Source: Gemmatimonadaceae bacterium
Lineage (GTDB): Bacteria > Gemmatimonadota > Gemmatimonadetes > Gemmatimonadales > Gemmatimonadaceae
NCBI GenBank assembly: GCA_046261975.1
Contig: JBHENQ010000107.1
Location: 11,006-75,005, forward strand
DNA: 64,000 bases
Direction: 5' to 3'
Below the pieces are notes generated by a model. It was not told the DNA's origin. It ran no database searches and was given only the letters and a program-made list of their open reading frames with translations. Shown one piece after another: positions 26,590 through 55,195 of the stretch; position 1 is the stretch's first letter; each line of letters begins with the position of its first letter. The position numbers and the translations under genes are program-made.

Positions 26590-27513
26590 ATGTTGCTAGC
26601 TCGGAGCATGATCCTCCGCGCTTCGCGCAGCCGTTTCCTGGCTGAGCAGTTTCGACGGCGTGCATTCGCTCGCCGCGCGGTGCGCCGGTTCATGCCGGGC
26701 GAAGATGTTTCCGCGGCCCTCGAAGCCTCCGTCGAATTCACCAAGCTTGGTATCGGCACAGTGCTCACCAACCTTGGCGAGCGAGTCACAACCAGGGCCG
26801 AGGCTACAGGAGTCCGGGATCACTACCTTGGCGTCCTGAATGCAGTGCGGGAACGTGGCCTTCCGGCGCAGATCTCGGTCAAGCTCACGCACCTGGGCCT
26901 GAACGTCGACCAAACGCATTGCGCCGACCACGTGTTGGCGCTCGCCGAACACGCTTCGGTCGACGGGTCTACGGTGTGGCTCGACATGGAAGAATCGCAG
27001 TACACCGATGCTACCCTCACCATCTTTCGGCAGGTCCGGGAGAGACACTCCAACATCGGAGTATGCTTGCAGGCCTATCTCCGGCGCACGGCAGCCGATC
27101 TGGCCGCACTGATGCCGCTGGACCCAGCTATTCGCCTGGTGAAAGGCGCGTACAACGAGCCTCGTGAGATTGCCTTTAGCGAGAAACGAGATGTCGACGA
27201 GAACTTTTTCTCGATCGCGACGCAGCTACTCTCGCTCGCTGGTGATCGGCAGGTAGTACCGGTGTTCGGAACTCACGATATGGGCCTGATAGGCCGCATA
27301 CGCCACCACGCCGGCACTGCCGGGATACCCAGGAGCAATTACGAATTCCACATGCTCTATGGCATCCGTTCAAACGAACAGAGATCGCTCGCGTTGGACG
27401 GTTGCACAGTCAGCGTACTGATCAGTTACGGCACCGCATGGTTCCCCTGGTACATGCGCCGGCTGGCCGAGCGCCCGGCCAATGTTTGGTTCGTGGTCAG
27501 GAATTTGTTCTAG
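26590..27513 (+). CDS. proline dehydrogenase family protein
   Basis: Motifs IRLVKGAY and EFHMLYGI typical of PutA-type proline dehydrogenase domains. Start ATG 26590. 307 aa. Confidence 0.6.
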   Translation: MLLARSMILRASRSRFLAEQFRRRAFARRAVRRFMPGEDVSAALEASVEFTKLGIGTVLTNLGERVTTRAEATGVRDHYLGVLNAVRERGLPAQISVKLTHLGLNVDQTHCADHVLALAEHASVDGSTVWLDMEESQYTDATLTIFRQVRERHSNIGVCLQAYLRRTAADLAALMPLDPAIRLVKGAYNEPREIAFSEKRDVDENFFSIATQLLSLAGDRQVVPVFGTHDMGLIGRIRHHAGTAGIPRSNYEFHMLYGIRSNEQRSLALDGCTVSVLISYGTAWFPWYMRRLAERPANVWFVVRNLF

Positions 27514-27610
27514 GGAAATCGGGAATCGGGAATCGGGAATCGGGAATCGGGAATCGGGAATCGGATCCCGACTCCCGACTCCCGACTCCCGACTCCCGAC
27601 TCCCGACTCC
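27514..27610. repeat. inverted tandem heptamer arrays (GGGAATC)x6 - GGATCC - (CGACTCC)x6 between convergent genes
   Basis: Read directly. Left arm begins at the stop codon of the proline dehydrogenase gene and right arm ends at the stop of the TonB receptor gene. Arms complementary except one position per unit (A-C on plus strand, G-U on minus-strand RNA). Confidence 0.95.
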
Positions 27611-30280
27611 CTAGAAGGTATACTGCGTGCGCGCGATCACTAGTCTGCCGATCGTGGGTGCGCCCACGAACTCCCGGTGTCTCTCGTCAAATATGTTCTG
27701 GGCGTTCACGGCAAGCATCAACCCGCGGGCAAACGGGAGACGATACGCAACGTTAATGTCGGCCAGCGTGTACGACTCCACACGGCCTATGTAAACGCCG
27801 GAGTTCATCGGGAAATCGTCAACGTAGCGACCGCGTATCTCGCCCGATAACCCGCTCGTCTGGTTGCGGTATCGAAGGGCCAGCGAACCCTTGCTGCCAG
27901 GCGCATTGAGAGCAAGATCGGAGTTGCCGCCGATTTCGCTCCTGGGGAAGAAGTCCTTACTGACGAATGAGACAGTAGCGGCGACAGACACCACATCTGT
28001 CATGAGCGCCTCGACAGCCAGATCAGCACCCCATAGATCCAGATCGCCGAAGTTCCGATACGTGAGAAAGAGATCGGGGCTGTTGGTGAGAGGATTGTCT
28101 GGTGTCGCAGTTGCAAGCGGAACAGGTCCAACAGCCTGGGCCATCGCTGTGGCCTCGGCTGTAGCGCGCGCCTGCGCCTGCGCCGGCGGCATACCGGCCG
28201 CGATGTACGCCTGCGTGAGCCTGGTCGCCATGTAGGTGCCGAAAGATGTTGGGTCGACAAACACGCTCGGTGTCTCAACGATCAACGGGCCCACGAAATC
28301 AGTCTTCTTCTCGTAGTACACGTCGGCAGCGAGCAGTACGCGCTTCCCCAGCAATCCTTTGTAGCCACCCTCGATCGTGCTGCTGATCGTGGGCCGCAAT
28401 TGGTCGACGTCGACCACGTCCGCCACTGTTGCGCTTGTGAACGGCGGCCCAGTTCCGCTGGTGTTCAGCTTACGCAGCACCGTCTGAACCTGAGCCGGCG
28501 TTGGAGCAGGAATTTGCGAGATATTGATATTTCGGGCGGCAAGCAGACGTACGATCGGTACCCAGAGTCCCGTGATGTCGCTGGCAAGAAAAGCTGTCTG
28601 GTCGGCAGCGAAGGGTGAGCGCACACAGAGTCCGCCGGCGCAATCGCGGCGGAAACGCAGTCCGCCTTCTGGAACCCCTACCGTGCGAATGAAATAGGGC
28701 AGCTGCGCGTTGAGGCGCTGCACCTGAAGATCGAGGAACAGATTGTTGCTGGTTGGAGTGCTGAACGCGCGGTTGTACGTAAGCCTGAAGTTCTGGTCCT
28801 CTACCGGCTTGAAGACGAGCGCCGCGCGCGGCGAGAAAACAGGATCCTCCAGTCGGCTATGGTTATCCACCCGCGCGGCGGCTATGAAATTAAACTTCGG
28901 CGACAGCCTTGTCTCCGTGTGCACGTAGCCGCCAATCTCCGTGATCTTGTCGTCGTCCTCGTTCCGCCCGTTAATCGTGCCATCCGTCCGCGGATCGGTA
29001 TGTTGCACGTCCAGTCCGTAAATGAAATCGAACCGGTCGGCGAAGCCCATCCCGTGCTGAAGCTGTCCGACGTAGAGACGCGACTTGTCGACGATCCTCT
29101 GGCCGGTGCGGAGAAGGAAGGTTGAGTCGGTATTGCTCTGGTTCAGGAAGACCTGGCCAAAGAGACGCTTATGCCGAGCGCGGCCCTGATAGTACGTATA
29201 GTCCCAGTCCCTCGCCTGCGCGGCGCCGATTCCGGTAAGCTCGATCGCGTTGCCGGCAGATGCCCGGCCGACGCCAAATATCACGTCGGTGTTCGTCCCG
29301 GGACGCCAGTCTGCCCGTGCCTCGCCCGTCCAGCGCTCGACCTTGAAGTCACGCTTGTTCACACCGATGCCGGGAAGCGTATCCGGCTCCGCAGGGTCGT
29401 CAAACTCCCAGTCGTCACCCTGCATGTATTGGCCGGAAATCTTGTAACCAAAGGTCTCACCGACCACACCCGCATGCCGTCCCGAGCCAAGGAAGACAGA
29501 GCGCTCTCCGCCACCCACGCTCAGAGTAGTGCCCCTCGACGTGAACGGTGAACGCGAGATGATATGTAGAACACCGTTCGCACTGTTCGGGCCGTAAAGC
29601 GCGGCGCCCGGGCCAAGCACGATCTCGATCTTCTCAATGTCCTCATTCGTTACGGGAATCAGAAACGGCGTGTTGACGCGGAGCGACGGTACGGATGTGT
29701 ATCTGTTGTCCGTCATCGTCAGTAGCGCACCAGAGAAAACATTGCTGAATCCGCGCGCCACCGTGCTACTCTGCATGAGACCGGTCGTCGCGACATCCAC
29801 CCCGGGCTCACCACGAACGTGCTCCACCGGAGTGAGCACCGGACGATCCTCGATTCGTTCGGTTGGAACCACTGAAACCGACGCAGGCGCATCCAGCGCT
29901 TTTTCGGTGGTTCTCGACACTGTGACGACTTGTGGATTGAGCAGCGCGGCGGTGCTGGTCATGGTAGCCGAAGCGACCGTGACTTCGCTCGCGCTCACAC
30001 GAATACCTGGCAGACGCTGTTGCTGGTACCCGATTCGGGAAATCACAACTGTGTAAACGCCGGGCTCCAGATTGACGAGCCGATACTCTCCGTCATCTCC
30101 CGAAAGTGTGGCCGCCGCGACACCGCCGAGCGCTCCGAACGCCTCCACCCGAGCCGCTGGAACGCCCGCGCCAGTCTCGTCGGTTACCTTGCCGCTGATG
30201 ACGCCAGTCTGAGCGCTCGCAGCCGAGGCCGCGAAGATACCAAGCAGTGCGGTTAACAGAAGTCTGATCCGCATGATCAT
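27611..30280 (-). CDS. TonB-dependent outer-membrane receptor with N-terminal carboxypeptidase-regulatory-like domain
   Basis: Signal peptide (MIMRIRLLLTALLGIFAASAASAQ). CarboxypepD_reg-like GKVTDETGAGVPAARVEA. Plug and 22-strand barrel-sized body. C-terminal ...YTF. Start assigned to internal Met (ORF extends to 30325). Confidence 0.85.
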   Translation of the reverse strand: MIMRIRLLLTALLGIFAASAASAQTGVISGKVTDETGAGVPAARVEAFGALGGVAAATLSGDDGEYRLVNLEPGVYTVVISRIGYQQQRLPGIRVSASEVTVASATMTSTAALLNPQVVTVSRTTEKALDAPASVSVVPTERIEDRPVLTPVEHVRGEPGVDVATTGLMQSSTVARGFSNVFSGALLTMTDNRYTSVPSLRVNTPFLIPVTNEDIEKIEIVLGPGAALYGPNSANGVLHIISRSPFTSRGTTLSVGGGERSVFLGSGRHAGVVGETFGYKISGQYMQGDDWEFDDPAEPDTLPGIGVNKRDFKVERWTGEARADWRPGTNTDVIFGVGRASAGNAIELTGIGAAQARDWDYTYYQGRARHKRLFGQVFLNQSNTDSTFLLRTGQRIVDKSRLYVGQLQHGMGFADRFDFIYGLDVQHTDPRTDGTINGRNEDDDKITEIGGYVHTETRLSPKFNFIAAARVDNHSRLEDPVFSPRAALVFKPVEDQNFRLTYNRAFSTPTSNNLFLDLQVQRLNAQLPYFIRTVGVPEGGLRFRRDCAGGLCVRSPFAADQTAFLASDITGLWVPIVRLLAARNINISQIPAPTPAQVQTVLRKLNTSGTGPPFTSATVADVVDVDQLRPTISSTIEGGYKGLLGKRVLLAADVYYEKKTDFVGPLIVETPSVFVDPTSFGTYMATRLTQAYIAAGMPPAQAQARATAEATAMAQAVGPVPLATATPDNPLTNSPDLFLTYRNFGDLDLWGADLAVEALMTDVVSVAATVSFVSKDFFPRSEIGGNSDLALNAPGSKGSLALRYRNQTSGLSGEIRGRYVDDFPMNSGVYIGRVESYTLADINVAYRLPFARGLMLAVNAQNIFDERHREFVGAPTIGRLVIARTQYTF

Positions 30281-30374: not shown

Positions 30375-30458
30375 CGGGTGTGGGGTGTCGGGTGTGGGGT
30401 GTCGGGTCTGAGATTTGGTCTGTTTCCTGTTAGCTGTTCCCTGTGAGCTGTTCGCTGG
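30375..30458. repeat. GGGTGTG/GGGTGTC heptamer array followed by CTGTTNC-type repeats upstream of the TonB receptor gene
   Basis: gggtgtggggtgtcgggtgtggggtgtcgggtc then ctgtttcctgttagctgttccctgtgagctgttcgctgg read directly. Confidence 0.8.
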
Positions 30459-34301: not shown

Positions 34302-35810
34302 TTGCGCGGTTCTGACAAAGGTCTCATAGCCCGACACAGGGAACTGAGTGATCTCCGAGCCATGCATGCCAAATCGGGGTTTAACTTGGTACTTGTACAT
34401 GGTAAGAGACGCGTGGGGAAGACCAGGCTTCTTTCCCACGTCTGGCCGCACGACCAGGTGTTTTACTTCGCAGCCGCCGATGCGACCGGGACGATTAACC
34501 GTCGGGAGCTAATTCTCGCCGCCAATCGCCGTTTCGAGCTCGAGCTCGATCCTGCGGACTTCCACTCCTGGGAGGCAGTTTTTCGTGCTCTGCTCGAATT
34601 CGGCTCACCGGCACCCATCGCGATTGTTCTGGACGAATTCCATCACGTCGTTGCCGCCGACGCTGGCGTCACAGAGCAGCTCGAGGCCGCGCTGAGGGTA
34701 AGACGAACTAGGCGTTCTTCCGCTCTCGTCCTTTGCGGATCAGCCGATCAGACCATGTCGGGTCTCCAGGCCGCGGATTCGCCGCTACGCAGCCGCTTTG
34801 ATACCGTTCTCGAGCTACAACCTTTCGATTACCGTGACGCGGCAGAGTTCACGCCAACGGCGAGCTTGCGCGAGTGTGCATACATGTACGGCATCTTCGG
34901 CGGAATGCCGGGCTACCTCAGCGCCATCGATCCGGAACGACGTCTCGCGGATAACGTGGCCGCAGAAATGCTCGCGTCCGAAGGCAAGGTACGCGTTCAG
35001 ATCGAAACCGGGATCGACCAGGAGCGCGGGCTGCGGCATCAACATGAGTACAAGGCCATCCTCCGGGCTATCGGAGCCGGAAGCAGAATGGCCAGCGAGA
35101 TCGCAGAAAACGCGGGCACAGAGCCTGGCACTTCCACCAAGGTCATGCTTGAAAAACTTGCCCGACTGGGCTACGTCACGAGCGAACGAAGCTTCGGGGC
35201 GAAACACACCCATGCGTTTGAGTACCATCTGGCGGACCCGGCCCACAGGTTTCACTACGAGCTCGTTGAACCCTTCCGCTCCGAGCTCACGATCCATGAA
35301 CCCATCACGGTATGGCTGGATCGCATTGCAGCCCGTGTTCCGGCTTACATGAGACGGGTTTTCGAGTTGATGGTCCGGCAGGCCTACCAGCGCCACCACT
35401 TACGGCTGCGGCTTCCACCGGTAGTAGAATGGGGTCGATGGGTTGGCTCATCCGGCAGTCAGAGGGGTGGAAGCCGCGATCCTCAAAGGAGCTCCCATGA
35501 GATCGGCATCGTGGCCAGGCTCCAGGACGGTCGCATGCTCACGGGCGCCGCAGTGTGGGGGAAGTTGACACCGGAGGCTCATGCACGGCATCTGAGCTCC
35601 CTGCGCGCCCTCGCGACCACAGGCTACGAGTGGGCGCGCGAGGCGCTGGATACCAAAGCCCTGTTGCTCTACGCTGCCAGCGATTCAGTTCCGGCCGACT
35701 TCGGTGAAAGCACTGCTGCCGGCCGTACAATCATCGCCTGGACACTCGAAGACCTCTATCACGGACGCGAAGCGCGACTGCTCGCACGTCCCTACCAGGC
35801 GATGCCGTAG
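34302..35810 (+). CDS. AAA-type ATPase of the archaeal-ATPase (PF01637-like) plus DUF234 family
   Basis: TTG start. N-terminal ARHRELSDL then Walker A LVHGKRRVGKTRLL, Walker B IVLDEF. C-terminal winged-helix-like DUF234 region. Confidence 0.65.
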   Translation: MRGSDKGLIARHRELSDLRAMHAKSGFNLVLVHGKRRVGKTRLLSHVWPHDQVFYFAAADATGTINRRELILAANRRFELELDPADFHSWEAVFRALLEFGSPAPIAIVLDEFHHVVAADAGVTEQLEAALRVRRTRRSSALVLCGSADQTMSGLQAADSPLRSRFDTVLELQPFDYRDAAEFTPTASLRECAYMYGIFGGMPGYLSAIDPERRLADNVAAEMLASEGKVRVQIETGIDQERGLRHQHEYKAILRAIGAGSRMASEIAENAGTEPGTSTKVMLEKLARLGYVTSERSFGAKHTHAFEYHLADPAHRFHYELVEPFRSELTIHEPITVWLDRIAARVPAYMRRVFELMVRQAYQRHHLRLRLPPVVEWGRWVGSSGSQRGGSRDPQRSSHEIGIVARLQDGRMLTGAAVWGKLTPEAHARHLSSLRALATTGYEWAREALDTKALLLYAASDSVPADFGESTAAGRTIIAWTLEDLYHGREARLLARPYQAMP

Positions 35811-37687
35811 TCCTCGCCGTGGTGGCTCGATGCCCCCCACATGGTGCCGTGCTTCCTGTCGAACATTATCGCGTTGATAGGCCCCGATGTGCGCTCCTCG
35901 AACTCCAGTTCGTAGCCCATCTTCCGAAGCTCGACCCGGACCGAATCGGGTGTGGACGACGACAGCAACATGCGGCCCGGCCGAGCTTCGTGCGCACCGA
36001 AGGAGGATCGCATCTGGTAACTGTTGATGTTTGCGGCTTCGGCCGACTGTTGCGGAGTCATCCCAAACTCCACGATGTTGAGAAAGAACTGCAGGAGATT
36101 CTGATCCTGCGAGTCACCACCCTGCACCGCGAAGGACAGGAACGGTAGTCCGTCCTTGAGCGCGATTGTTGGCGTGAGCGTCACTCGGGGACGCTTCCCA
36201 GGTTCTATCACGTTGTATGGACCATCCTTCACGTCCGTGACGAAACTCTGGGCACGCTGGCTCAAACCGATGCCTGTGCGCCCGGCTATCACCGCGGGGA
36301 CCCAACCCCCACTCGGCGTTATCGATACCACCCACCCTTCCTTGTCGGCGGTTTCGATGGAAGTAGTACCAGCATAGAACTGCCTCTTGAAGTCGGAATC
36401 CGAGAGGGTCGCATCACTCTGCGGGATGGGCCGGTCTTGTTCGCCGCTCTTCTTGAGCGTGTCGGGTGCCGGGATCACTGTCCATCTTGCCAAGATGTCC
36501 TTGAAAGGGTTCGTGCCGCCTTGAAAGGCGTACGGATCGCCTGGCTTGATCTCGGGATTGTTGCGCGACCAGTCGATCTCCTTCCCGCGCGACTGGGCAT
36601 ACTCCTTGGACAACAGCCCTTTCACCGGCTCCTCAGGGGCAAAATAAGGATCGCCGTAATAAAAATCCCTGTCTGCGAAGGCGAGGTTCATCACCTGATA
36701 CAGCGCATGGATGTACTTTGGCGAATTGTACTTCATCTCCTTCACATCCATGCCCTCGATCATGTTGAGCGCCTGAAGCATTGCCGGCCCCTGCTGCCAC
36801 ATTGGGAGTTTGTATACCGTTATGCCCTTGTACGTGGTGCTGAGGGGTTCCTCGATTCGCACCTTCCATTCGCTCAGGTTCTGGACAGTGATGAGCCCTC
36901 CTTCTTCCTGGACGCCGCGCGCCAGTTCGCGCGCAATGTCACCCCTGTAGAAACGATCGTTGGCAGCATATATCGCCTCTTTCCGGCTCTTTCCCTTTCG
37001 CAGCGCCTGGCGCTCCGCGTCCACGAGCTTTCGAAGAGTCGCCGCCAGAATTTTCTGGACGAACATCTCGCCAGCGTACGCCGCTTCTCGCTCTTCGCCT
37101 TTATGCGGTAGATATACGAGTTGTGAGTATTTCCACTGCTTTATCAACTCCTTATTCCGTTCAATTGAGTTCGCTGCCTGCGCTTCTATGGGATAGCCAT
37201 CAGCCATCTGGATCGCGGGAGCGAGCACATCCTCGAGCGACATCGTGCCATACTCGGCGAGCATCGTCATGAGTCCGCCTGGCGTTCCGGGCGTTACAGC
37301 CGCGAGCGGACCATACTCCGGCGGATAACGATGTCCCTTGCTGCGGTAGAACTCGGCCGTCGCACCCGTCGGCGCCACACCGAGCGCGTTGATGCCGATC
37401 ACCTTCCTGAGCTTTGGATGATAGAGAAGCGCCTGGGTCTCGCCGCCCCAGGACAGGACGTCCCACATGGTCGCGACCGCTCCAAGCATTGCGCACGCAG
37501 CATCCACCGCATTCCCGCCTTTCTGAAACATCATGGCCCCGGCAGTGGCGCCTAACGGCTTACCAGTTATGGCGATCCAGTGTCTGGCGTGCAGGGGCGG
37601 CTTTGCTGTGCGCTGCGCGGAAAGTGGCAGCGCGCTGAGCGATACCATTGTCACCGCAAGCGCGCCACATAGCTGATGTGTGTGCAT
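35792..37687 (-). CDS. ggt: gamma-glutamyltransferase
   Basis: Signal peptide. GGT N-terminal pattern (GGNAVDAACAMLGAV) and autoprocessing Thr nucleophile region AGTTSIETADKEGWVVSITPS. Start at Met 37685-37687. The longer ORF to 37939 is a translation of the repeat arrays. Confidence 0.85.
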   Translation of the reverse strand: MHTHQLCGALAVTMVSLSALPLSAQRTAKPPLHARHWIAITGKPLGATAGAMMFQKGGNAVDAACAMLGAVATMWDVLSWGGETQALLYHPKLRKVIGINALGVAPTGATAEFYRSKGHRYPPEYGPLAAVTPGTPGGLMTMLAEYGTMSLEDVLAPAIQMADGYPIEAQAANSIERNKELIKQWKYSQLVYLPHKGEEREAAYAGEMFVQKILAATLRKLVDAERQALRKGKSRKEAIYAANDRFYRGDIARELARGVQEEGGLITVQNLSEWKVRIEEPLSTTYKGITVYKLPMWQQGPAMLQALNMIEGMDVKEMKYNSPKYIHALYQVMNLAFADRDFYYGDPYFAPEEPVKGLLSKEYAQSRGKEIDWSRNNPEIKPGDPYAFQGGTNPFKDILARWTVIPAPDTLKKSGEQDRPIPQSDATLSDSDFKRQFYAGTTSIETADKEGWVVSITPSGGWVPAVIAGRTGIGLSQRAQSFVTDVKDGPYNVIEPGKRPRVTLTPTIALKDGLPFLSFAVQGGDSQDQNLLQFFLNIVEFGMTPQQSAEAANINSYQMRSSFGAHEARPGRMLLSSSTPDSVRVELRKMGYELEFEERTSGPINAIMFDRKHGTMWGASSHHGEDYGIAW

Positions 37688-37890
37688 GGAGTCGGGAGTC
37701 GGGAGTCGGGAGTCGGGAGTCGGGAGTCGGGAGTCGGGAGTCGGGAGTCGGGAAGAGCTTTGAAAGGAATATAAGGAGAAAGAGAATAGGGAATAGGAAC
37801 CATCCCTATTCCCTATCCCTATCCCGACTCCCGACTCCCGACTCCCGACTCCCGACTCCCGACACCCGACACCCGACACCCGACACCCGA
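37688..37890. repeat. nested inverted heptamer arrays: (GAGTCGG)x9 ... (AATAGGG)x2 / (TCCCTAT)x3 ... (GACTCCC)x5 (GACACCC)x5
   Basis: Read directly. About 200-nt two-level palindrome between the lipoprotein gene stop (37899) and the ggt start (37687). Confidence 0.95.
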
Positions 37891-37898
37891 CACCCGAG

Positions 37899-38351
37899 CT
37901 ACTCGATCTTGAACTCCTCCGATTCGACCACTGACCCATTCAGAAGGACCTCGAGCTTGTATTTCCCTTTTGGCAGTCCGCCCGGCTTGCTGATGTGAAA
38001 TTCCGTCACGGACGGCCCGGTTGGGGATACTGTTTGGCTGGTCTCCTCGACAACTTGACCGTCTTCGAAGGTCCACCGGGCTTTTAGCTCGGCGTTGGAG
38101 GCCGAGCCTGTCGTGGCGACGGACGCATAGACTACATCGCCTGGATCAAAGTCGTCAGTCTTGTCGACGACGCGCTTATCAGCGTCGACACCTTTGCCGA
38201 GTTCTACCTCGGTGACGGCCAGATTGGCCACCGTCGCCACAGCTCCGGCGTCTCTCTCCTCAGTCTTATCCGTCTTGCCGCAAGCCGCTGCAGCAACAAG
38301 CAAGCACAGGGCGAGCGCGCTAGCGCGCCCAGTTAGCGTGTAGTGCGACAT
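37899..38351 (-). CDS. hypothetical lipoprotein
   Basis: Signal peptide with lipobox LVAAAAC. 150 aa, Thr/Val/Glu-rich beta-type sequence, no known motif. Stop codon abuts the repeat array. Confidence 0.5.
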   Translation of the reverse strand: MSHYTLTGRASALALCLLVAAAACGKTDKTEERDAGAVATVANLAVTEVELGKGVDADKRVVDKTDDFDPGDVVYASVATTGSASNAELKARWTFEDGQVVEETSQTVSPTGPSVTEFHISKPGGLPKGKYKLEVLLNGSVVESEEFKIE

Positions 38352-42168: not shown

Positions 42169-42175
42169 TGAGAAC

Positions 42176-42311
42176 TAGGGATTAGGGATCAGGGATTGGG
42201 GATTAGGGAACGGAAACTTGGGCCCTGTGCGTCGGGCCGGCTATGGAGAGTCCGCAGTGGTATTCCCTAATCCCTAATCCCTAATCCCTAATCCCTAATT
42301 CCTAATCCCTA
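42176..42311. repeat. inverted telomere-like heptamer arrays: (GGGATTA)x5 - 50-nt spacer - (CCCTAAT)x7
   Basis: Read directly. Between the ettA start and the TolB-like gene stop. The last 4 codons (G-I-R-N-stop) of the TolB-like ORF lie inside the right arm. Confidence 0.95.
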
Positions 42312-43206
42312 GCACCGCCGGGCTGCGGTCGTTGCTGGCGCGATTCACCAGGATTCGAGCCTGCGTGCCGGCGCCGGAATAGAAGACTATGTCGCCGTTG
42401 TCGCCATAGGCTCTGTTCACCGCGAGGCAACCATGATCGTAGCACGCGGGCTCGCCAAGACCGGCCGCGCTCGATGCATAAGGCGCGACCTCCAGCGTCG
42501 CGATATTGACCATCCGGACCTCAGTGACACCGCCGCTTGCGACGAAGTAGACATTGCCTCCGTCAGCACTCCACTGTGGATCGAAGGCACCGCCACTCTC
42601 CGACGTCAACTGCTGGGCGCTGCCCCCAGTCGACGGCACAATGTACACCTGCGATGTTCCCGTTCTGGTAGAGGTAAAGGCAAGTTGGTCACCCGCAGGA
42701 CTCCAGGCCGGCGATCTCTCCGGGACGTACTCCGTAGCGCCAGTTGCAAGCGGCGATGGGTTGGTCCCATCGGCTCGCATAGTCCAGAGTCTCGGCGTGC
42801 CACCCCGGTTGCTGACGAACGCTATGGTGCCACCTCCCGGTCCCAGCACCGGATGCTCATCGAGTCCCACGGACTCGGTGAGGCGACGCGGAGCTACTCC
42901 CTCAAGATCCGAAACGTATATCTCCGGGTCTCCATCCCTGTAGGATGTGAAGACGAGCCGGTCGGCCGCGACGTGAGGGTCACGATCGGTCATGTCACTG
43001 AACGTTAGCCGGACTATCGAGTCGTTTCGGAAGCGGTAGAGCTGGTCGTTACCGCTCGAGTCGGAGACGAAGATGAAGGCTGGAGACGCAGCGGCCGGCA
43101 TATGGTCTGGTGAAGTTGCGTCGCTACATGCCCCCCCCACAGGCATCGAAATCGCAGCTAGCAAGATGCAGCGAAGCGCCGTGTTTTTCCGGGAAGGAGC
43201 GGGCAT
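42295..43206 (-). CDS. TolB-like PD40 beta-propeller lipoprotein
   Basis: Lipoprotein signal (LLAAISMPVGGAC). Repeated PD40 units (..SPAWSPDG.., ..FVSNRGG.., ..DGTNPS..). Start at Met 43204-43206. Confidence 0.7.
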   Translation of the reverse strand: MPAPSRKNTALRCILLAAISMPVGGACSDATSPDHMPAAASPAFIFVSDSSGNDQLYRFRNDSIVRLTFSDMTDRDPHVAADRLVFTSYRDGDPEIYVSDLEGVAPRRLTESVGLDEHPVLGPGGGTIAFVSNRGGTPRLWTMRADGTNPSPLATGATEYVPERSPAWSPAGDQLAFTSTRTGTSQVYIVPSTGGSAQQLTSESGGAFDPQWSADGGNVYFVASGGVTEVRMVNIATLEVAPYASSAAGLGEPACYDHGCLAVNRAYGDNGDIVFYSGAGTQARILVNRASNDRSPAVLGIRN

Positions 43207-43382
43207 GTAGAGCTCCGAGAGAATCCAGTGCAGGCCTGCGGTGGGGTGGGGGGCACTTGAGGCCAACCCCTTCCCTCATCTGCGACGGACGGCTCTCCCG
43301 AACTGTCACATTATGGTCGCCTCATGAGCAAATCTTCATCGGGCGTACTCGAGCATGACGCGCCGAGAGACTTCATGCCCTC

Positions 43383-45647
43383 CTAAACAGGGAACAACAT
43401 CTCGCGGTATTTCGGGAGCGGCCAGAAATCATCACCGACCATGACCTCCAAGGCGTCCGAAGCTGCACGTGCGTTGGCCATTCGATCGGCCCCTTCCGAG
43501 GTGAGAAACTGCGCCTGCCCCACCAGATCGTCGTGCATGAATTCCGAACGTTCGATCGCCTTCCCCAACGCCGTGCTGCCTTTGCTCAGTTGCTCGATCA
43601 GCTTCCCTACCTTGTTGGCTGCTTCAACCTGCGGGATGACCTTGATACCCGCAGTCTTGGACTGCGCGGCAGCCGACGCGAGGCTACCGTGATAGGCGAA
43701 TGCACCTGGAAGGACCATCGTGTCTATGATCTGCTGTAGCGTGTGCATCTCGATGAGCATGTCCTTCACGTACCGTTCAAGACGCACGTGATAGCGCGAC
43801 TCGAGCTCCTCCTTGCTCAGAATTCCAAGATTGATGAGTAGGGCTCGCGATTGTTTCGTGACCAGCTGGGCTAGTGCCTCCGGCGTGCGCCGAAAATTGG
43901 GCAATCCGCGTTTGTCCGCCTCAACGACCCATTCCTCGGAGTAGTTGTTCCCTTCGAACCTGACTGCTGAAGTTTGCTTGAAGGACTTCGCCACAACTTT
44001 CAGAACGGCGTCATCCACCGACTTCGTGCGCTTCATGGTCTCGCGGAGGTCTGACGTAACCTCACCGATTGCCTCTGCGACCGTTGCATTCAGAAGCGTG
44101 ATCGGTGCGGCTATGGACGCGGAACCCCCGACCGCGCGGTACTCGAACTTGTTCCCAGTGAAGGCAAAGGGCGACGTGCGGTTGCGATCGGTGTTGTCCT
44201 TCTCGATCTCCGGCAGCTTCGCGACTCCGAGCTTGATTAGTTGTTGCGCAGCACTGACACCGCTTTTCGAGCTCTTCCCAGCGGCAATGTCCTCGATCAG
44301 GCGGGTAAGCATGTCGCCCATGAACACGGAGATGATCGCGGGAGGCGCCTCGTTGGCTCCCAGGCGGTGCTCGTTCCCGGAAGTCGCGATTCCCGCTCGC
44401 AAGAGACCGGCATGCTTGTGGACGGCCTTGAGTACCGCCGCGAGGAAAATCAGGAAGCGGAGATTTTGATGGGGCGTCTTTCCAGGCTTGAGCAAGTTGT
44501 TACCATCGAGCTCCGAGTTATCGGCGATGATCGCCATGGACCAGTTGCAGTGCTTGCCCGAGCCATTGATGCCCGCAAAGGGCTTCTCATGCAGTAGGGC
44601 CTGCAGGCCGTGACGCAGCGCAATGCGCCGCAGCGTTGCCATGACGAGCTGGTTATGATCGACCGCCAGGTCGGTCTCCTCGAAGATCGGGGCCATCTCG
44701 AACTGGCAAGGCGCCACCTCGTTGTGTCGCGTCATGATGGGCACGCCAAGCTTGTAGAGCTCGAACTCCACTTCTGAAAGGCACGCCTGTATACGCTCCG
44801 GAATCCCCCCGAAGTAGTGATCCTCGAGTTGCTGGCCACGTGGCGGCGGAGCGCCGATCAGCGTGCGACCCCCCATAACCAGGTCCGGCCGCAAGGCGAA
44901 GTGTTTCCTGTCGATAAGGAAGTACTCCTGTTCCGGTCCCAACGTTGTGAAGACGCGCTGGACGCCCTTGTCTCCGAGCAGTTCAAGCAGCTCGATTGCC
45001 TTCTCGGAAAGGACGTCCGAGCTCCGGAGAAGCGGCGTCATCTCGTCGAGTGCTTCGCCGTTGTACCCAATGAAGACGGATGGGATGCACAGCGTTCGGA
45101 GCCCTTGGCCCTCGACGATGAACACCGGGCTGGCGGGGTTCCAGGCGGTATAGCCGCGCGCTTCCCACGTGGCGCGCAGACCGCCCGACGGAAAACTGGA
45201 CGCATCGGGCTCACTCTGGATGAGCTGAGCTGCGGTGAATGACTCTATAGCCTGCTGGTTATCGTCAAAAGACAGAAAGGCGTCGTGCTTCTCAGCGGTG
45301 AGTCCGGTCTGCGGCTGGAACCAGTGTGTGAAGTGCGTCACTCCACGAGAGATAGCCCAGTCCTTGATCGCTTGCGCTACCGTCGGCGCAATGTCCAGGT
45401 CAAGCTTCTTACCCTGGCGGATGCAGGCTAGCAGTCGGGCGTAAACATCCTTGGGTAACTTGTCTCGCATCTGGCGCGCGCCGAAGGTATTGATCCCGAA
45501 ATACTCGGACGTTCGGCGATGTCCCATACCGTTGGATGTGTTCGTTCCATTGGCGGAAGGCAAGTGCGAAAGACGCCCTGCTATATCCTGCAGTACCGCT
45601 TTTCGGGGGTTCAATGCTGACGTGGGCATTTGATGAGACGACTCCAT
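43383..45647 (-). CDS. glnN: glutamine synthetase type III
   Basis: About 750 aa. N-terminal SEYFGINTFG...THFTHWFQP and catalytic-domain motifs of GSIII (GlnN). Confidence 0.8.
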   Translation of the reverse strand: MESSHQMPTSALNPRKAVLQDIAGRLSHLPSANGTNTSNGMGHRRTSEYFGINTFGARQMRDKLPKDVYARLLACIRQGKKLDLDIAPTVAQAIKDWAISRGVTHFTHWFQPQTGLTAEKHDAFLSFDDNQQAIESFTAAQLIQSEPDASSFPSGGLRATWEARGYTAWNPASPVFIVEGQGLRTLCIPSVFIGYNGEALDEMTPLLRSSDVLSEKAIELLELLGDKGVQRVFTTLGPEQEYFLIDRKHFALRPDLVMGGRTLIGAPPPRGQQLEDHYFGGIPERIQACLSEVEFELYKLGVPIMTRHNEVAPCQFEMAPIFEETDLAVDHNQLVMATLRRIALRHGLQALLHEKPFAGINGSGKHCNWSMAIIADNSELDGNNLLKPGKTPHQNLRFLIFLAAVLKAVHKHAGLLRAGIATSGNEHRLGANEAPPAIISVFMGDMLTRLIEDIAAGKSSKSGVSAAQQLIKLGVAKLPEIEKDNTDRNRTSPFAFTGNKFEYRAVGGSASIAAPITLLNATVAEAIGEVTSDLRETMKRTKSVDDAVLKVVAKSFKQTSAVRFEGNNYSEEWVVEADKRGLPNFRRTPEALAQLVTKQSRALLINLGILSKEELESRYHVRLERYVKDMLIEMHTLQQIIDTMVLPGAFAYHGSLASAAAQSKTAGIKVIPQVEAANKVGKLIEQLSKGSTALGKAIERSEFMHDDLVGQAQFLTSEGADRMANARAASDALEVMVGDDFWPLPKYREMLFPV

Positions 45648-45880
45648 TCTTCGGGTTGGTTGTTCAGGCGGGTGGTATCAGAAATTTGCTCAAAATGCAT
45701 CAGAGAATCAAGTTTTAGCGATCAGAAGGACGAAAAGCTGCAAAATGCGCCTGCAATATTGCGCTGGATGCATTATTCATGCGACGGTATCCGGCTGAAA
45801 TTGAGCACTTCAGGCCGCTAGGCGCGGCCTCCACACCGCGCCGCAAGTCGATCGTTGCACTGGCTCCAGATCGGAGTGTC

Positions 45881-45921
45881 TACACCCTACACCCCACACC
45901 CCCCACCCCACACGCGACACC
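45881..45921. repeat. CCCCACA-type heptamer array (single arm, about x5) between glnA and glnN
   Basis: tacaccctacaccccacaccccccaccccacacgcgacacc read directly. Confidence 0.75.
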
Positions 45922-45928
45922 TGGCTTG

Positions 45929-47293
45929 TCAATACTTGGCCAGATAATTGTCTAACTCCCACTGTGAAACCTGCATGATGTAATCCTTCCATTCCTGTCG
46001 TTTCGCTTGCAGAAAGTGAGCGGTGATGTGCTCGCCCAGTGCTTGGGCTATTACCTCGTCCTTCTCGAGCTCGTCACAGGCCTCATTGAGATCCCCGGGT
46101 AAGTCGTCGATGCGAAGGCGGCGCTTCTCGCGATGGGACATTTCCCAGATGTTGGTGTTCACCGGCTCGCGCGCATCCGCTTTCGTCTCGATGCCGTCCA
46201 GCCCTGCCGCCAGCATGACTGCGAGGGCCAGATACGGGTTCGCTGCAGGATCTGGCATGCGGAGCTCGCATCGCGTGCCGAGCCCGCGCCTGTCCGGGAT
46301 GCGGATCATGGGTGACCGGTTGCGCATGGACCAGGCTACGTTTACGGGGGCTTCGAAACCAGGCACCAGTCTCTTGTAGGAATTCACGAGCGGATTCGTG
46401 ATGGCGCTGTATCCTCGCGCATGACGCAACAGGCCGCCGATGTAGTGAAGAGCCACGTCCGAAAGCTCCCACTGCGCATTCTCATCCCAAAATGCGTTCT
46501 TGTTTCCCCTGAATAACGACTGGTGGGTGTGCATTCCGCTCCCGTTCTGGCCAAAAATCGGCTTGGGCATGAACGAGGCAATGAGCCCGAACTGCTCGGC
46601 AACGTATTTTACAACGAACCGAAAGGTTGCGATGTTGTCGGCCGTGGTGAGTGCGTCGGTATAGCGGAAGTCGATTTCGTGCTGGCCGTGAGCGACTTCG
46701 TGATGAGCAGCTTCGACCTCGAAGTCCATCTTCTCCAGAACGTCCACGATGGCCCGCCGGGCGTTCTCGCCAAGGTCGACCGGGGCCAGGTCGAAATACC
46801 CTCCCACATCGTGTGTGACAGTGGAAGCCTCACCGTCCTCATCTCGCTTGAACATGAAGAATTCGGCTTCCATCCCGGCCTTCATCGTGTAGCCGAGCTT
46901 CGCTGCCCTTGCTATCTGCCGCTTGAGCACAGCTCGCGGATCCCCTGGGAAGGGAGTGCCATCAGGGGTGTTGATGTCGCAAATAATGCGCGCAACGCGA
47001 CTCTCACCCGAGGTCCACGGAAAAATCTGAAACGTGCCCAGGTCGGGTGACAGCAACATGTCCGACTCCTCTATTCGGACGAAACCTTCGATGGAAGACC
47101 CGTCGAACATGATGTCTCCCTCGAGCGCCTTCTCAAACTGCGAGGCGGGAACTTCCACGTTCTTGTTTACACCCAGTATGTCGGTGAACTGAAGTCTCAG
47201 AAAGCGCACGTTGTTCTCGGAGGCGAGATTAAGGATTTCCTTTTTGCTTCCGATGTTTAGACTTCGCGCTGCCACGCGGGCTTTGGACGGCAC
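45929..47293 (-). CDS. glnA: glutamine synthetase type I
   Basis: 454 aa. GSI beta-grasp N-domain (FTDILG, MFDGSSIEG) and catalytic motifs FMPKPIFGQNGSGMHTHQS, NSYKRLVPGFEAP. Confidence 0.9.
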   Translation of the reverse strand: MPSKARVAARSLNIGSKKEILNLASENNVRFLRLQFTDILGVNKNVEVPASQFEKALEGDIMFDGSSIEGFVRIEESDMLLSPDLGTFQIFPWTSGESRVARIICDINTPDGTPFPGDPRAVLKRQIARAAKLGYTMKAGMEAEFFMFKRDEDGEASTVTHDVGGYFDLAPVDLGENARRAIVDVLEKMDFEVEAAHHEVAHGQHEIDFRYTDALTTADNIATFRFVVKYVAEQFGLIASFMPKPIFGQNGSGMHTHQSLFRGNKNAFWDENAQWELSDVALHYIGGLLRHARGYSAITNPLVNSYKRLVPGFEAPVNVAWSMRNRSPMIRIPDRRGLGTRCELRMPDPAANPYLALAVMLAAGLDGIETKADAREPVNTNIWEMSHREKRRLRIDDLPGDLNEACDELEKDEVIAQALGEHITAHFLQAKRQEWKDYIMQVSQWELDNYLAKY

Positions 47294-47453
47294 GTAAGGG
47301 CTCCTTGCAGTCGAGTAGACGCCGTTTCCCGCACCTAATCTTCCGGAAGGACTCGAAAAGGGAAGTCGGCGTGCCGGCAGATTCCGGTTGCGCGGTTCTT
47401 GCTACAGGAAATCCCAGCCATTGCAGTCTCATCAGACCCGGAGGTCACGACCA

Positions 47454-47882
47454 ATGAAAGCAAAGGAAATAATGACTCCAAATCCGCGCTGCGTAACGCC
47501 AGATACGCGGCTTCAGAACGCGGCCCGGCTCATGAAGGAGGAAGACGTCGGTATTCTGCCCGTGGTGGACGAGATCGGATCGACGCGGCTGATTGGCGTA
47601 CTCACCGACCGCGACATCGCGCTTCGCTGTGTTGCCGAGGGTCATGATTCGTCCAAGTGTTCGGTCCGGGAAGTGATGACGACGGAGCTGCGCACCGCGC
47701 GCCCTGACCAGGAGGTAGATGAGGTTATGGATCTCATGGGGCGAGAACAGGTGCGCCGAATACCGATCGTCGACGAGAAAGGTGGTGTGGTTGGCATCAT
47801 CGCGCAGGCCGACATCATGTTGGAAGCCAATGACCGCAAGGCTGGAGAAACCGTAGAGGAAATCTCCATGGATAGGAGCTAG
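47454..47882 (+). CDS. CBS-domain pair protein
   Basis: Two CBS motifs (IMTPNPRCVTPDTRL...GILPVVDE; VMTTELRTARPDQEV...RRIPIVDE). GGAGGT upstream of ATG 47454. 142 aa. Confidence 0.75.
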   Translation: MKAKEIMTPNPRCVTPDTRLQNAARLMKEEDVGILPVVDEIGSTRLIGVLTDRDIALRCVAEGHDSSKCSVREVMTTELRTARPDQEVDEVMDLMGREQVRRIPIVDEKGGVVGIIAQADIMLEANDRKAGETVEEISMDRS

Positions 47883-47998
47883 TTACAGGTCACAGCTGAC
47901 AGGTAACAGCTGACAGGTAACACCTAACACTTGTTGTCACCTGTGACCTGTTCCCTGTCACCTGTGACCTGTCACCTGTTCCCTGTTACCTGTAACTA
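47883..47998. repeat. inverted repeat built from ACAGGTN / CAGCTGA heptamer-like units (left arm about 38 nt, right arm about 62 nt)
   Basis: ttacaggtcacagctgacaggtaacagctgacaggtaaca ... tgtcacctgtgacctgttccctgtcacctgtgacctgtcacctgttccctgttacctgtaa read directly. Between the CBS gene and the zinc-ribbon gene. Confidence 0.9.
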
Positions 47999-48010
47999 GT
48001 CCCTGTTAGT

Positions 48011-48841
48011 TTGCTGCTGGTGACGAGTTCCGTAAGCACGTTCTGCCCGTCCTGTTCGTCTCCTGCCAGCGGTCACTTCTGCTCATCGTGCGGGGCGCCA
48101 CTTCAGGGTGTCGCCTGCAGTGCCTGCCGGGCGCCCCTCACACCGGGTGCGAAATTTTGCCATCGCTGTGGGACCCCGGTTGGGGCAGGGGCGAGCACTA
48201 CCGTCACGGCGAGTTCGGGGTCAGGTCACCTTACTTCCGCTCTGCCGTGGACCATAGCCCTGATTGCCGTCGTTGCACTCATCGCACTCTTGGCGGGCCA
48301 GCGCTTCAATCGGCAGACCGCCAGGTCCCTCGATGCACCGCTCAATGCTCTGCCTCAAACAGGGCTTGATGATCGCGCGGGGGCAGCGGGCGGAGCCACC
48401 CGGGCACCTGACATCTCGCGGATGACGCCGCGGGAGAGGGCAGATCGCCTCTTCAATATCATCATGGAACTCGATCAGCGCGGTCGCATTGACAGCGTGC
48501 AGTTTTTCGCGCAGATGGCGATACCAGCACATCTGATGCTCCCCGCCCTCGACGCCGACGCGCGATACCATATCGGACGCATCGAGCAGGCGGCCAGAAT
48601 ACCACCGTTTGGCTCTGGTCAGGCAGACACGATTCTGCAGGCGAATCCCACGCACCTTCTGGGTCTGATTCTCGCGCTCCAAGCTGCCCGCTCCGCTGGC
48701 AACGAGCGTGTCGCCCATGATTTCACATCCCGTCTCCTGGCAAGCGTAGCCGAGGAGCGGCGCAGGAAACTTCCAGAGTATGAGGGTCACAAGGCCGATA
48801 TCGAGCGTGCCCTGAGCATCGCGGGAACAGAACCCAAGTGA
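48011..48841 (+). CDS. zinc-ribbon membrane protein (hypothetical)
   Basis: N-terminal double CxxC zinc-ribbon (CPSCSS...CSSCGA; CSACRA...CHRCGT), one TM helix, helical C-terminal domain. 276 aa (start uncertain). Confidence 0.5.
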   Translation: MLLVTSSVSTFCPSCSSPASGHFCSSCGAPLQGVACSACRAPLTPGAKFCHRCGTPVGAGASTTVTASSGSGHLTSALPWTIALIAVVALIALLAGQRFNRQTARSLDAPLNALPQTGLDDRAGAAGGATRAPDISRMTPRERADRLFNIIMELDQRGRIDSVQFFAQMAIPAHLMLPALDADARYHIGRIEQAARIPPFGSGQADTILQANPTHLLGLILALQAARSAGNERVAHDFTSRLLASVAEERRRKLPEYEGHKADIERALSIAGTEPK

Positions 48842-49674
48842 GCAGGACCATTCATGTGGCTCACAGTCCTGACTCGGATGACGCCTTCATGTTCTACGCA
48901 CTTGCGGAAGGCAAGATCGACACCGGGGACATTCGATACATCCACGAGCTTCAGGACATCGAATCGCTCAACCAGAGGGCGCTTCGCGGCGAACTCGATG
49001 TCACAGCCGTTTCCTTCCATGCCTACGCCTATCTGGCGGACCGCTACGCGCTGTTGCCGCACGGTGCGTCCTTCGGGGACCACTACGGACCGCGACTCGT
49101 TGCCCGCGAGCCTTTGTCCCGAGTGGACGTCCGCGGCAAACGCATCGCGATTCCGGGTCCGCTCACTTCAGCGTTTCTGGCACTGAAGCTCTACGAGCCT
49201 GCGTTCGAACCCGTACCTATTGCCTTTGATGCGATCGAGGAGGCCGTGGCGGACAATACAGTAGACCTTGGACTCCTGATCCACGAAGGGCAGTTGACTT
49301 TCGGCGATCGCGGGCTTCATCTCATCGCTGATTTGGGCGAATGGTGGTTTGACGAAACTGGACTTCCCCTCCCACTCGGTGGGAATGTGATTCGCAAGGA
49401 TCTCGGCGCCGAAACGATGCTGGATGTATCGCGACACCTCCGGTCCAGCATAGCGTTTGCTCTAGACCACCGACCCGCGGCGCTCGACCATGCAATGCAG
49501 TATGCTCGCGGTCTGGATCGCACGAAAGCCGATACTTTCGTCGGGATGTACGTCAATGATTGGACGCTGGACTACGGCGAGCGAGGCCGGCTCGCCGTGA
49601 AAACTCTGCTCGATCGCGGATTCGAGGCGGGTGTCATTCCCCACCAAGTAAAGCTCGAATTCGTTCAGGATTAG
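48838..49674 (+). CDS. menaquinone (futalosine-pathway) MqnD/MqnA-family protein, probably 1,4-dihydroxy-6-naphthoate synthase
   Basis: N-terminal HVAHSPDSDDAFMFYAL matches the conserved SPCPNDTFIF region of MqnD (VitK2_biosynth / periplasmic-binding-fold family). 278 aa. No other mqn genes in window. Confidence 0.6.
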   Translation: MSRTIHVAHSPDSDDAFMFYALAEGKIDTGDIRYIHELQDIESLNQRALRGELDVTAVSFHAYAYLADRYALLPHGASFGDHYGPRLVAREPLSRVDVRGKRIAIPGPLTSAFLALKLYEPAFEPVPIAFDAIEEAVADNTVDLGLLIHEGQLTFGDRGLHLIADLGEWWFDETGLPLPLGGNVIRKDLGAETMLDVSRHLRSSIAFALDHRPAALDHAMQYARGLDRTKADTFVGMYVNDWTLDYGERGRLAVKTLLDRGFEAGVIPHQVKLEFVQD

Positions 49675-49723
49675 AAATCCTTCACGATGGTGACACGCCT
49701 TCGCCGCGAATCGTCCGTCCAAC

Positions 49724-52426: not shown

Positions 52427-52433
52427 GTCTGTC

Positions 52434-53546: not shown

Positions 53547-53656
53547 CAGCTTAAGGCGCGGATAGCCGTCGCTCGAGAGGGGACCTTTTACACACCGAGA
53601 CGTCGCCGGTCCTAGGCAGTCGGCGCCCTCCTCGGCGAGTCTTTTGGCTTGCTGGC

Positions 53657-53685
53657 TTGACGGAATGGGTAAGCGGTTGTATTGG
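53657..53685 (+). promoter_or_regulatory. sigma70-like promoter (TTGACG - 17 nt - TATTGG) upstream of the H1-like protein gene
   Basis: Hexamers read directly at 53657-53662 and 53680-53685. AGGAGG RBS precedes ATG 53774. Confidence 0.35.
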
Positions 53686-53773
53686 GGAGGGCGGACAGAA
53701 TGTCCGGCATGTTGCGTGCATCCGGCCATAGGAATCCGATCGACCACAGCCCGTTCGCGCACAACACAGGAGG

Positions 53774-54418: not shown

Positions 54419-54540
54419 AAGAGCCGGAGGCCGGCGGTAGGCTCTTGGGAATCGGGAGTCGGAAACGCGAAGCGTTCCGATTCCCGGCTCTTGACCTCCC
54501 TTCCCACGCTCTCCGCTCCGAGTTAAGGTATTCACCGGAC

Positions 54541-55086: not shown

Positions 55087-55090
55087 AGCT

Positions 55091-55193: not shown

Positions 55194-55195
55194 CG

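Follow-up and report, generated by a model that had tools for sequence, protein, structure and literature searches.

Why is the gap between two genes of a Gemmatimonadaceae bacterium filled, from stop codon to start codon, by two facing arrays of heptamer repeats? The question is raised by a 64,000-nucleotide stretch of contig JBHENQ010000107.1 (hereafter the window), in which such arrays span the entire space between a lipoprotein-like gene and ggt, the gamma-glutamyltransferase gene, at 37688-37897. The array structure lies far beyond chance expectation. Rather than being a regulator unique to ggt, the element, designated A4, is a copy of a repeat class that occurs throughout the genome and is known from other phyla (PMC4692102). 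We tentatively propose, with a confidence slightly short of even, that the element acts at the RNA level as gene-end punctuation, in which a hairpin would terminate or protect the upstream mRNA and a C-rich leader would serve ggt. We place this role at the RNA level because the arrays sit at gene 3' ends, their polarity is related to transcription, their core hairpin is conserved and canonical terminators are not enriched in this DNA.

Structure and predicted fold of the element

The element consists of two outer arrays that enclose a smaller inverted pair. On the plus strand, the left array is (GGAGTCG)x9.4 at 37688-37753 and is 100% perfect, as established by TRF and direct reading. The right array at 37822-37897 starts with (TCCCGAC)x6 at 37822-37863 and continues with (ACCCGAC)x4.9 at 37864-37897, so that it contains five GACTCCC and five GACACCC units. 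These are the same repeats that the original prediction, made from the DNA letters, had described as (GAGTCGG)x9 facing (GACTCCC)x5+(GACACCC)x5. In an inverted-repeat search, the outer arms are 66 nt long, 94% complementary and separated by 68 nt. Within the spacer, ATAGGGAATAGG at 37786-37797 pairs with CCTATTCCCTAT at 37805-37816 with 100% complementarity across a loop of only 3-7 nt, and this inner hairpin adjoins the right arm. An inner inverted pair had been predicted and is indeed present, except that its left arm reads aatagggaatagg, with one G fewer than had been noted. The A-rich stretch ggaatataaggagaaagaga, previously taken for the core of the inner pair, is located off-centre, to the left of the inner hairpin, where it forms an asymmetric bulge between the left outer arm and the hairpin. 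Apart from these two small corrections, the earlier description is correct, and the structure is real and striking. Its units, GGGAGTC and GGGTGTC, are 7 nt long with a G3 tract and occur 9.4 and 10.9 times in the two arms. The element is the longest array locus in the window, in line with its designation as the largest of its family.

On the sense (minus) strand, the order of the parts is the TAG stop codon, 3 nt, (GGGUGUC)5(GGGAGUC)6 and the 17-bp inner hairpin, followed by a 31-nt unpaired pyrimidine-rich stretch with UAUAUU, (CCCGACU)9CC and the AUG of ggt. The parts and the two flanking genes are listed below in sense order.

37899-38351, minus strand: upstream gene, a 150-aa lipoprotein-like open reading frame (ORF) without a Pfam hit
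37864-37897, minus strand: outer block of the sense 5' (G-rich) arm, (GGGTGTC)x5, with one U.U mismatch per unit against the 3' arm
37822-37863, minus strand: inner block of the sense 5' (G-rich) arm, (GGGAGTC)x6, a perfect complement of the 3' arm
37783-37819, minus strand: inner 17-bp hairpin of GGGAAUA/GGGAUAG-type units with a 3-nt loop, then the tail CUUUCUCCUU
37754-37782, minus strand: unpaired, pyrimidine-rich (sense) spacer with TATATT at 37773-37768 and TCCTTTC
37688-37753, minus strand: sense 3' (C-rich) arm, (CCCGACU)x9 + CC, abutting the ggt AUG (0 nt)
35792-37687, minus strand: ggt, gamma-glutamyltransferase (PF01019), start ATG at 37687-37685

The full element is predicted to fold with a minimum free energy (MFE) of -178 kcal/mol (z-score -16.4 against dinucleotide shuffles) when read from the minus strand and of -168 kcal/mol (z-score -17.7) when read from the plus strand. 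On both strands, the predicted MFE fold is the long hairpin with a smaller internal hairpin that had been envisaged. The other fold that had been suggested, two G-quadruplex (G4) tracts facing two C-rich tracts, loses to the hairpin in the energy model when both arms are present. Even when ViennaRNA is allowed to form G-quadruplexes, it folds the full element as the hairpin (-177 kcal/mol), and G4 appears marginally and in truncated RNA only. The C-rich leader by itself is predicted to be essentially unstructured (-8.9 kcal/mol over 116 nt). Ten perfect period-7 runs of at least 25 nt occur in the window, in contrast to none in 20 mononucleotide shuffles, and the window has no perfect tandem run of this length at any other period from 4 to 12. 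An Rfam scan at the gathering score gave no match at the element; the sole Rfam match in the window is a tRNA at 3111-3183 on the minus strand. A CRISPR array was also considered and rejected because the repeats are not separated by spacers.

As predicted, the element occupies the whole gap from the upstream stop codon to the start of ggt, both of which are on one strand. The TAG of the lipoprotein-like gene at 37901-37899 is 1 nt (37898) from the array edge that TRF places at 37897, and 4 nt ahead of the first full GGGTGTC unit. The longest ggt ORF reads through the array and reaches 715 aa. This extension had been regarded as a translation artefact, and the comparison with homologues agrees: they lack it, and a relative with 91% identity starts at the same array-adjacent ATG. 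A coding repeat was rejected on the same ground, namely that ggt homologues have no array-encoded extension. Their signal peptide of ~35 residues ends in AQ ahead of an HWxAxTGKP motif, which agrees with the ATG at 37687. In the NCBI call for ggt (P0001, 618 aa, 100% identical), the first 13 codons (37649-37687 region) are missing, so that the signal peptide is truncated. At its other end, ggt (minus strand) converges with an AAA/ATPase_2 gene (plus strand, 34302-35810) in a 19-nt overlap at 35792-35810 that leaves no room for an array, and none is present there. No Shine-Dalgarno motif lies upstream of the ggt ATG. The sense-strand TATATT at 37773-37768 is a candidate -10 box for ggt, an assignment that we infer from the sequence only, and a promoter scan of the sense strand gave no sigma-70-like site for ggt.

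Heptamer arrays at gene ends

Is the element specific to ggt? TRF and direct reading together identify about 10 array loci in the 64 kb, eight of which are pairs (A1-A5 and A7-A9) and two single arrays (A6 and A10). Their units are GGGAGTC, GGGAATC, GGGATTA, GGGTGTC/GGGGTGT, GGGAATA and ACAGGTA/ACAGCTG. Gene contexts are based on Pfam checks of the array-flanking ORFs; the GC content at third codon positions is only ~0.7 in the window. The loci other than the element are as follows.

1927-2017: A1, pair (GAGTCGG)x4.4 ... (TCCCTAA)x4.9 between convergent peptidase S9 and DUF4142 genes
16924-16948, plus strand: A10, single (ACCCCAC)x3.6 array in the divergent promoter region of DUF885 and GMC oxidoreductase genes
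27517-27611: A2, pair (AATCGGG)x6.9 next to (TCCCGAC)x6.6 between convergent proline dehydrogenase and TonB receptor genes
30375-30457: A3, pair (CGGGTGT/GGGGTGT) + (CTGTTNN) between tandem minus-strand genes
42176-42311: A5, pair (TAGGGAT)x4.9 ... (TCCCTAA)x6.9 between tandem minus-strand PD40 and EttA-like ABC-F genes
45880-45921, minus strand: A6, single G-rich (sense) array of GGGGTGT type, 8 nt past the glnA stop
47885-47993: A7, pair (ACAGGTA/ACAGCTG) ... (TGTCACC/TGTGACC) between tandem plus-strand CBS and zinc ribbon genes
55088-55194: A8, pair GC(TAGGGAT)x5 ... (TCCCTAA)x5GC between convergent MerR and PLD genes
61336-61403: A9, pair (GGGTGTC/GGGGTGT) ... (CCCGACA/CCCCACA) between tandem plus-strand PD40 and Band 7 genes
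2012-2020, 27509-27517, 27605-27614, 42174-42182, 42305-42313, 55088-55096 and 55186-55194: outer ends in the same phase

The longest inverted repeats of the window are these array pairs; the others listed are shorter and less complementary and lie inside called genes. The arms of A8 are 36 nt long and 100% complementary, and its spacer contains the palindrome AAATGGCA-G-TGCCATTT. The GGGAATC unit is present at 27517-27564, within A2.

Convergent genes flank three pairs (A1, A2 and A8), each of which takes up its gap completely, and no other convergent gap has room for an array. Five pairs (A3, A4, A5, A7 and A9) lie between co-directional genes, and no pair lies between divergent genes in the window. 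The window arrays meet stop codons within 0-4 nt, and A10 is the sole array without an adjacent stop codon. In some cases, the array and the coding sequence overlap. At A2, both convergent genes end at the boundary TAGs of the arrays. At A5, the reading frame of the PD40 beta-propeller gene (42295-43266, minus strand) continues for 16 nt inside the (TTAGGGA)n array and closes at a TAG that the array supplies; because 7 and 3 share no factor, three such 7-nt units place a stop codon in every reading frame. At the other side of A5, the C-rich arm ends 8 nt ahead of the GTG start of the EttA-like ABC-F gene. Furthermore, the TAGGGAT-type arrays and those of A2 stop in one phase at all seven of their outer boundaries, (G)CTAGGGA... 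or ...TCCCTAG(C), and at A8 and the right end of A1 the boundary TAG is in frame one codon past the real stop (TAA AGC TAG, TGA CGC TAG and TAG AGC TAG). The shared phase may stem from a common seed, provide a back-up stop codon or be due to chance. Around A6, the minus strand carries two glutamine synthetase genes in tandem, glnA of type I (45929-47293) and one of type III (43383-45647); the 281-nt gap between them starts with A6 and includes an AT-rich stretch.

For comparison with relatives, we used 80 ggt loci from GTDB species genomes, mostly metagenome-assembled genomes (MAGs) of Gemmatimonadota and Acidobacteriota with a best identity of 80%, together with one further locus, L081, on a Logan contig. 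At the 80 loci, arrays of at least three copies most commonly have period 7 (117 arrays), followed by period 9 (61) and period 6 (33). The relatives have 22 heptamer inverted pairs built from diverse units (ATTGACG/CAATCGT, AGTCGTT/ACTAACG, GGCATTA/TAATGCC and GAGGAGT/TCCTCAT). Five nonamer inverted pairs were also found, at 9110-9222 and 9721-9831 of L010, 3178-3269 and 5909-6044 of L014, and 17892-18002 of L018, so that in relatives the pairs are not confined to heptamers. The nonamer pair GGTCCTCAG / CCCTGAGGA, for example, is placed at a gene end with the G-rich arm first, as are the heptamer pairs. When window and relatives are taken together, a long ORF stops within ~20 nt of the outer edge in 24 of 26 pairs, and the arm with more G than C comes first in 20 of the 21 distinct heptamer pairs, this element included, and in all five nonamer pairs. 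Because a pair looks alike from both strands, this order is an intrinsic polarity by which every transcript meets the G-rich arm first. Therefore, the element is oriented relative to transcription on both strands.

Could the arrays act through their G-tracts rather than through the hairpin? G3N4 arrays may fold into a G-quadruplex or i-motif in non-template DNA or nascent RNA after a stop codon, or in the template strand before a start codon, and pause or terminate the polymerase or tune expression, with the complementary arm as a competitor or switch. The sense 5' arm of the element, with at least 11 GGG tracts and 4-nt loops, is a canonical G4 motif, every family array in the window has at least 3.6 units, which is enough for four G-tracts, and the G-first rule puts G-rich RNA after every stop codon. 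Moreover, oligonucleotides of GGGAATC and GGGGAYT repeats form G4 as measured by circular dichroism, and there too it is the coding strand that carries the G-rich repeats past a stop codon (PMC4692102); for the present arrays, G4 is a candidate structure that the sequence motif suggests. However, A7 has no G3 runs and is not G4-competent, and many pairs of relatives (those of ATTGACG/CAATCGT, AGTCGTT/ACTAACG and GGCATTA/TAATGCC) also lack G-runs with architecture and orientation unchanged. G4 is thus not the common denominator, because these G-run-free loci share the architecture. The energy model likewise prefers the hairpin when given the choice, and a Haemophilus influenzae hmw1A mutant with an altered G-rich sequence but an intact hairpin shows the wild-type phenotype (PMC12721329). 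We consider a G4 or i-motif role improbable, but a rival to be taken seriously.

A mobile element, of the miniature inverted-repeat transposable element (MITE) type or like the repetitive extragenic palindromic sequences (REP/REPIN), was also considered. The occurrence in convergent and tandem gaps rather than in divergent ones resembles that of REP elements, and the (G)CTAGGGA outer boundary shared at seven of seven ends of the TAGGGAT-type arrays could be read as an element terminus. However, the spacers are unrelated from locus to locus and the arm units differ between and within loci; therefore, the copies have neither a conserved element body nor terminal inverted repeats beyond the simple sequence repeat (SSR) itself. 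MITE and REP identities were rejected because the copies share no element body. A Pfam scan of 20 window proteins revealed no transposase among these 20. An assembly artefact might be suspected because the L081 contig breaks inside the array region. This is probably not the explanation for the element, since its arms (66 and 76 nt) are below typical read length and the architecture recurs in many independent MAGs, which were produced in different studies with different assemblers. Mobility or misassembly as the origin of the element is very unlikely.

Core hairpin conservation and a possible role in RNA

Relatives differ in whether the gap upstream of ggt carries an array at all. L004, whose ggt is 78% identical, has a nested double array just upstream of ggt (6095-6262), in the order (GGGAGGA)4, (GGCATTN)4, a small core hairpin, (NAATGCC)4 and (CTCCTCC)4. 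This nested pair was built independently, and the gene upstream of it differs from that in the window, being VOC/glyoxalase-like by eye. L037, L035, L010 and L015 also have pairs or arrays upstream of ggt, and the array of L037 overlaps or supplies a stop codon like those of A2 and A5. The ggt relatives with a divergent upstream neighbour have no arrays there.

L081 is the one close relative found; its ggt is 91% identical and syntenic on the far side. A protein search of JGI data gave nothing closer than 81% to ggt, and exact-sequence look-ups with the lipoprotein-like protein, the EttA-like protein and the NCBI ggt product gave no match. The L081 contig begins inside the inner G-rich region (L081 1-95), so that it covers the element from the inner hairpin onward and not the outer G-rich arm, and its far end lies ~70 nt inside a GFO gene, not at array A3. 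The order in L081 is the 17-bp inner hairpin, TGCATCCTATATACTCCTTT and (CCCGACT)2CC-ATG. The C-rich arm of L081 agrees with that of the window in unit, phase and CC-ATG junction, but comprises two units instead of nine. Because repeats scramble the alignment across the arrays, the two sequences were compared over the inner hairpin alone. All 17 of its pairs are kept in L081, with one compensatory change (A-U to G-C) and three one-sided changes (G.U to A-U or similar). The TATAT(T/A) and TCCTTTC motifs are also conserved. This comparison of two sequences is suggestive of a core hairpin that is conserved while the arrays turn over. Arrays such as the one in which the L081 contig begins probably break short-k assemblies, and MAGs are therefore likely to under-represent them.

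Does the element end transcripts? A simple scan of the sense strand gave a single terminator-like match in the intergenic gap, namely the inner hairpin together with its pyrimidine-rich tail; the tail has 6 U in 10 after the 17 pairs and is not conserved in L081. The 19 kb from 45001 to 64000 show no enrichment of canonical hairpin-plus-U terminators, with 6 found in comparison with 14.3 +/- 5.2 in shuffles. The count suggests that the organism does not depend on classical intrinsic terminators.

The RNA-level reading that we tentatively favour would combine several steps. The inner hairpin, the 66-bp outer stem or both would end or protect the 3' end of the upstream transcript in the manner of a hairpin-type terminator without a U-tract. 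In any RNA that reads through the element, the ggt start codon would be hidden in the long duplex, which would also be long enough to serve as a substrate for the double-strand-specific RNase III. In contrast, ggt mRNA initiated at a spacer promoter would carry the C-rich arm only, as a G-poor, unstructured leader that would be suited to translation without a Shine-Dalgarno motif. Such a leader may suit this genome because only 17 of 44 genes have a loose Shine-Dalgarno-like motif. Arm length would drift via replication slippage. That transcripts end here, that RNase III cuts the stem, that a promoter sits in the spacer and that the C-rich arm serves as a leader are all steps that we infer.

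Several observations weigh against this reading. The (GGGTGTC)5 variant block is uncompensated in the partner arm, and three or four of about 11 loci have no good hairpin: the arms of A3 are non-complementary (sense-strand MFE of -7 kcal/mol, z 0.3), A6 and A10 are single arrays, and A1 is weak, its heterologous arms matching at 5 of 7 positions per unit. The outer stem lacks a U-tract, the inner tail is only partly U-rich and absent from L081, and the TATATT is not accompanied by a convincing -35 box by eye. Array turnover is fast, with nine units in the window and two in the 91% relative, and the arrays invade gene ends. Orthologous gaps in relatives with 80% identity are usually array-free. 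Fast turnover and array-less orthologous gaps fit weak or no selection.

Several of these points are what would be expected if the arrays were a tolerated, functionless by-product that grows by slippage, acquires its pairing by template switching at quasi-palindromes and accumulates at the least-constrained gene 3' ends until it reaches coding sequence. Period 7 alone forms arrays, in agreement with a proposal that slippage favours heptamers (cited in PMC4679880 and PMC4692102), and the arrays of A2, A5 and L037 overlap or supply stop codons as if their expansion had been halted by selection on the protein. However, slippage is strand-neutral and does not predict the G-first order in 20 of 21 pairs, all convergent cases included. 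A by-product would also not account for the conservation of the inner hairpin with a compensatory change, for the lack of pairs between divergent genes while every roomy convergent gap is filled, or for one architecture that recurs with unrelated units in two phyla. We regard a functionless origin as rather unlikely, while taking it seriously.

Relation to known heptamer repeats and implications

How does the element relate to known repeats? Rehm et al. 2015 (PLoS One, PMC4692102) described G-rich heptameric repeats, GGGAATC in Xanthomonas and GGGGA(C/T)T in Nostoc, and left their function unresolved. These repeats are intergenic, with the G-rich strand as the coding strand at most 50 bp after a stop codon or as the non-coding strand at most 50 bp before a start codon (PMC4692102). 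They are rare between divergent genes and form 70-75 convergent inverted pairs per Xanthomonas genome but few in Nostoc, vary in length and sequence among close relatives, form G4 in vitro and adjoin genes without a functional theme (PMC4692102). The present arrays resemble them in unit, intergenic site, stop/start placement, rarity in divergent gaps, converging pairs, variation and mixed neighbour functions. Every sequence-level feature of the class is found here: a 7-nt unit with G3-4, at least four units, placement at stops and starts, convergent pairs and copy-number variation. By these features, the element is no novel kind of repeat but belongs to the G-rich heptameric SSR class of Rehm et al. 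(PMC4692102), to which it adds a member from a new lineage. It differs in its host, a MAG of the Gemmatimonadaceae (Acidobacteriota MAGs have related arrays as well), and in the coexistence of several units (GGGAGTC, GGGTGTC, GGGATTA, GGGAATC, GGGAATA and ACAGGTA), even inside one pair. The nested two-level layout of the element, also present in L004, is a further difference, and the arms abut stop or start codons within 0-4 nt. The density of 15 arrays per 64 kb is ~6 times that of Xanthomonas (~186 per 5-Mb genome).

An experimentally proven precedent is the hmw1A gene of H. influenzae, where an (ATCTTTC)n hairpin in the 5' untranslated region is cut by RNase III and sets expression (PMC12721329). 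The authors of that study discuss competition between G4 and hairpin (PMC12721329). Both systems have a transcribed heptamer SSR upstream of a gene, a long hairpin with a G-rich partner arm and a variable copy number. In hmw1A, however, the SSR is pyrimidine-rich and occupies only one arm, on the 5' side, and the gene is a single virulence locus rather than a member of a genome-wide family. RNase III cleavage has been demonstrated there, whereas in the present element it would be a plausible consequence of the fold. Could the element then be a contingency (phase-variation) locus, in which the copy number of the C-rich array between promoter and ATG tunes ggt expression in the population? The array abuts the ATG, its copy number differs between relatives (9 versus 2), and expression of hmw1A drops with (ATCTTTC)n length (PMC12721329). 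However, the arrays also flank housekeeping genes (EttA-like ABC-F, glnA and proline dehydrogenase) and convergent 3' ends that have no promoter, and Rehm et al. argued against phase variation for the G-rich heptamer class (PMC4692102). A contingency role is very unlikely.

TAACTGA direct repeats of Beggiatoaceae, Cyanobacteria and Bacteroidetes are abundant and intergenic, often end 1 nt before a start codon and have been proposed to act post-transcriptionally (PMC4679880). Unlike the element, they have one fixed AT-rich unit in 2-6 copies, are almost never inverted and precede starts instead of following stops. The short tandemly repeated repetitive (STRR) heptamers of cyanobacteria (Mazel et al. 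1990) reportedly form tandem arrays dispersed in intergenic regions. They are probably the Nostoc repeats mentioned above. STRR and the element are both intergenic tandem heptamers, but STRR arrays are mostly single, have other units and reside in low-GC genomes. Outside the heptamers, REP/BIME (REPIN) sequences and hairpin-only ('I-shaped') terminators occur at 3' ends in convergent and tandem gaps, form stable hairpins and can make the mRNA upstream of them more stable. All REPs are versions of a single conserved imperfect palindrome that RAYT transposases mobilise, whereas the arms described here are SSRs that arose locally, differ in unit and enclose unrelated spacers. A literature search found no report of heptamer arrays or their G4 in Gemmatimonadota and no later paper that settles the function of heptamer SSR pairs.

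The present analysis adds Gemmatimonadota and Acidobacteriota as hosts of this repeat class, with a very high density. It also adds the sharp G-first rule, the contact of the arms with stop and start codons, and a core hairpin that appears to be conserved amid array turnover. In practice, the arrays yield false ORF extensions such as the 715-aa 'ggt', accompany a mis-called start and can break short-k assemblies. A more far-reaching view, which we judge distinctly improbable, is that paired SSR arrays might be the main gene-end punctuation of this Gemmatimonadaceae lineage. They would be self-extending hairpins layered outward from a core by slippage, in which the strict G-first order would reflect a co-transcriptional choice between G4 and hairpin that would set termination or RNase III processing against read-through, and in which separated G-rich 3' untranslated regions and C-rich 5' arms would pair in trans. 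Such pairing would be possible because units are common across loci, and, if true, it could couple neighbouring or distant genes. With these elements at a large share of gene ends, the models of a hairpin terminator or RNase III substrate, of G4 and of neutral slippage become directly testable. In many bacterial genomes, no other long repeats are as common as heptamer SSRs, and the main value of the present locus is that it offers a dense, rule-rich system in which to address what heptamer SSR pairs do.

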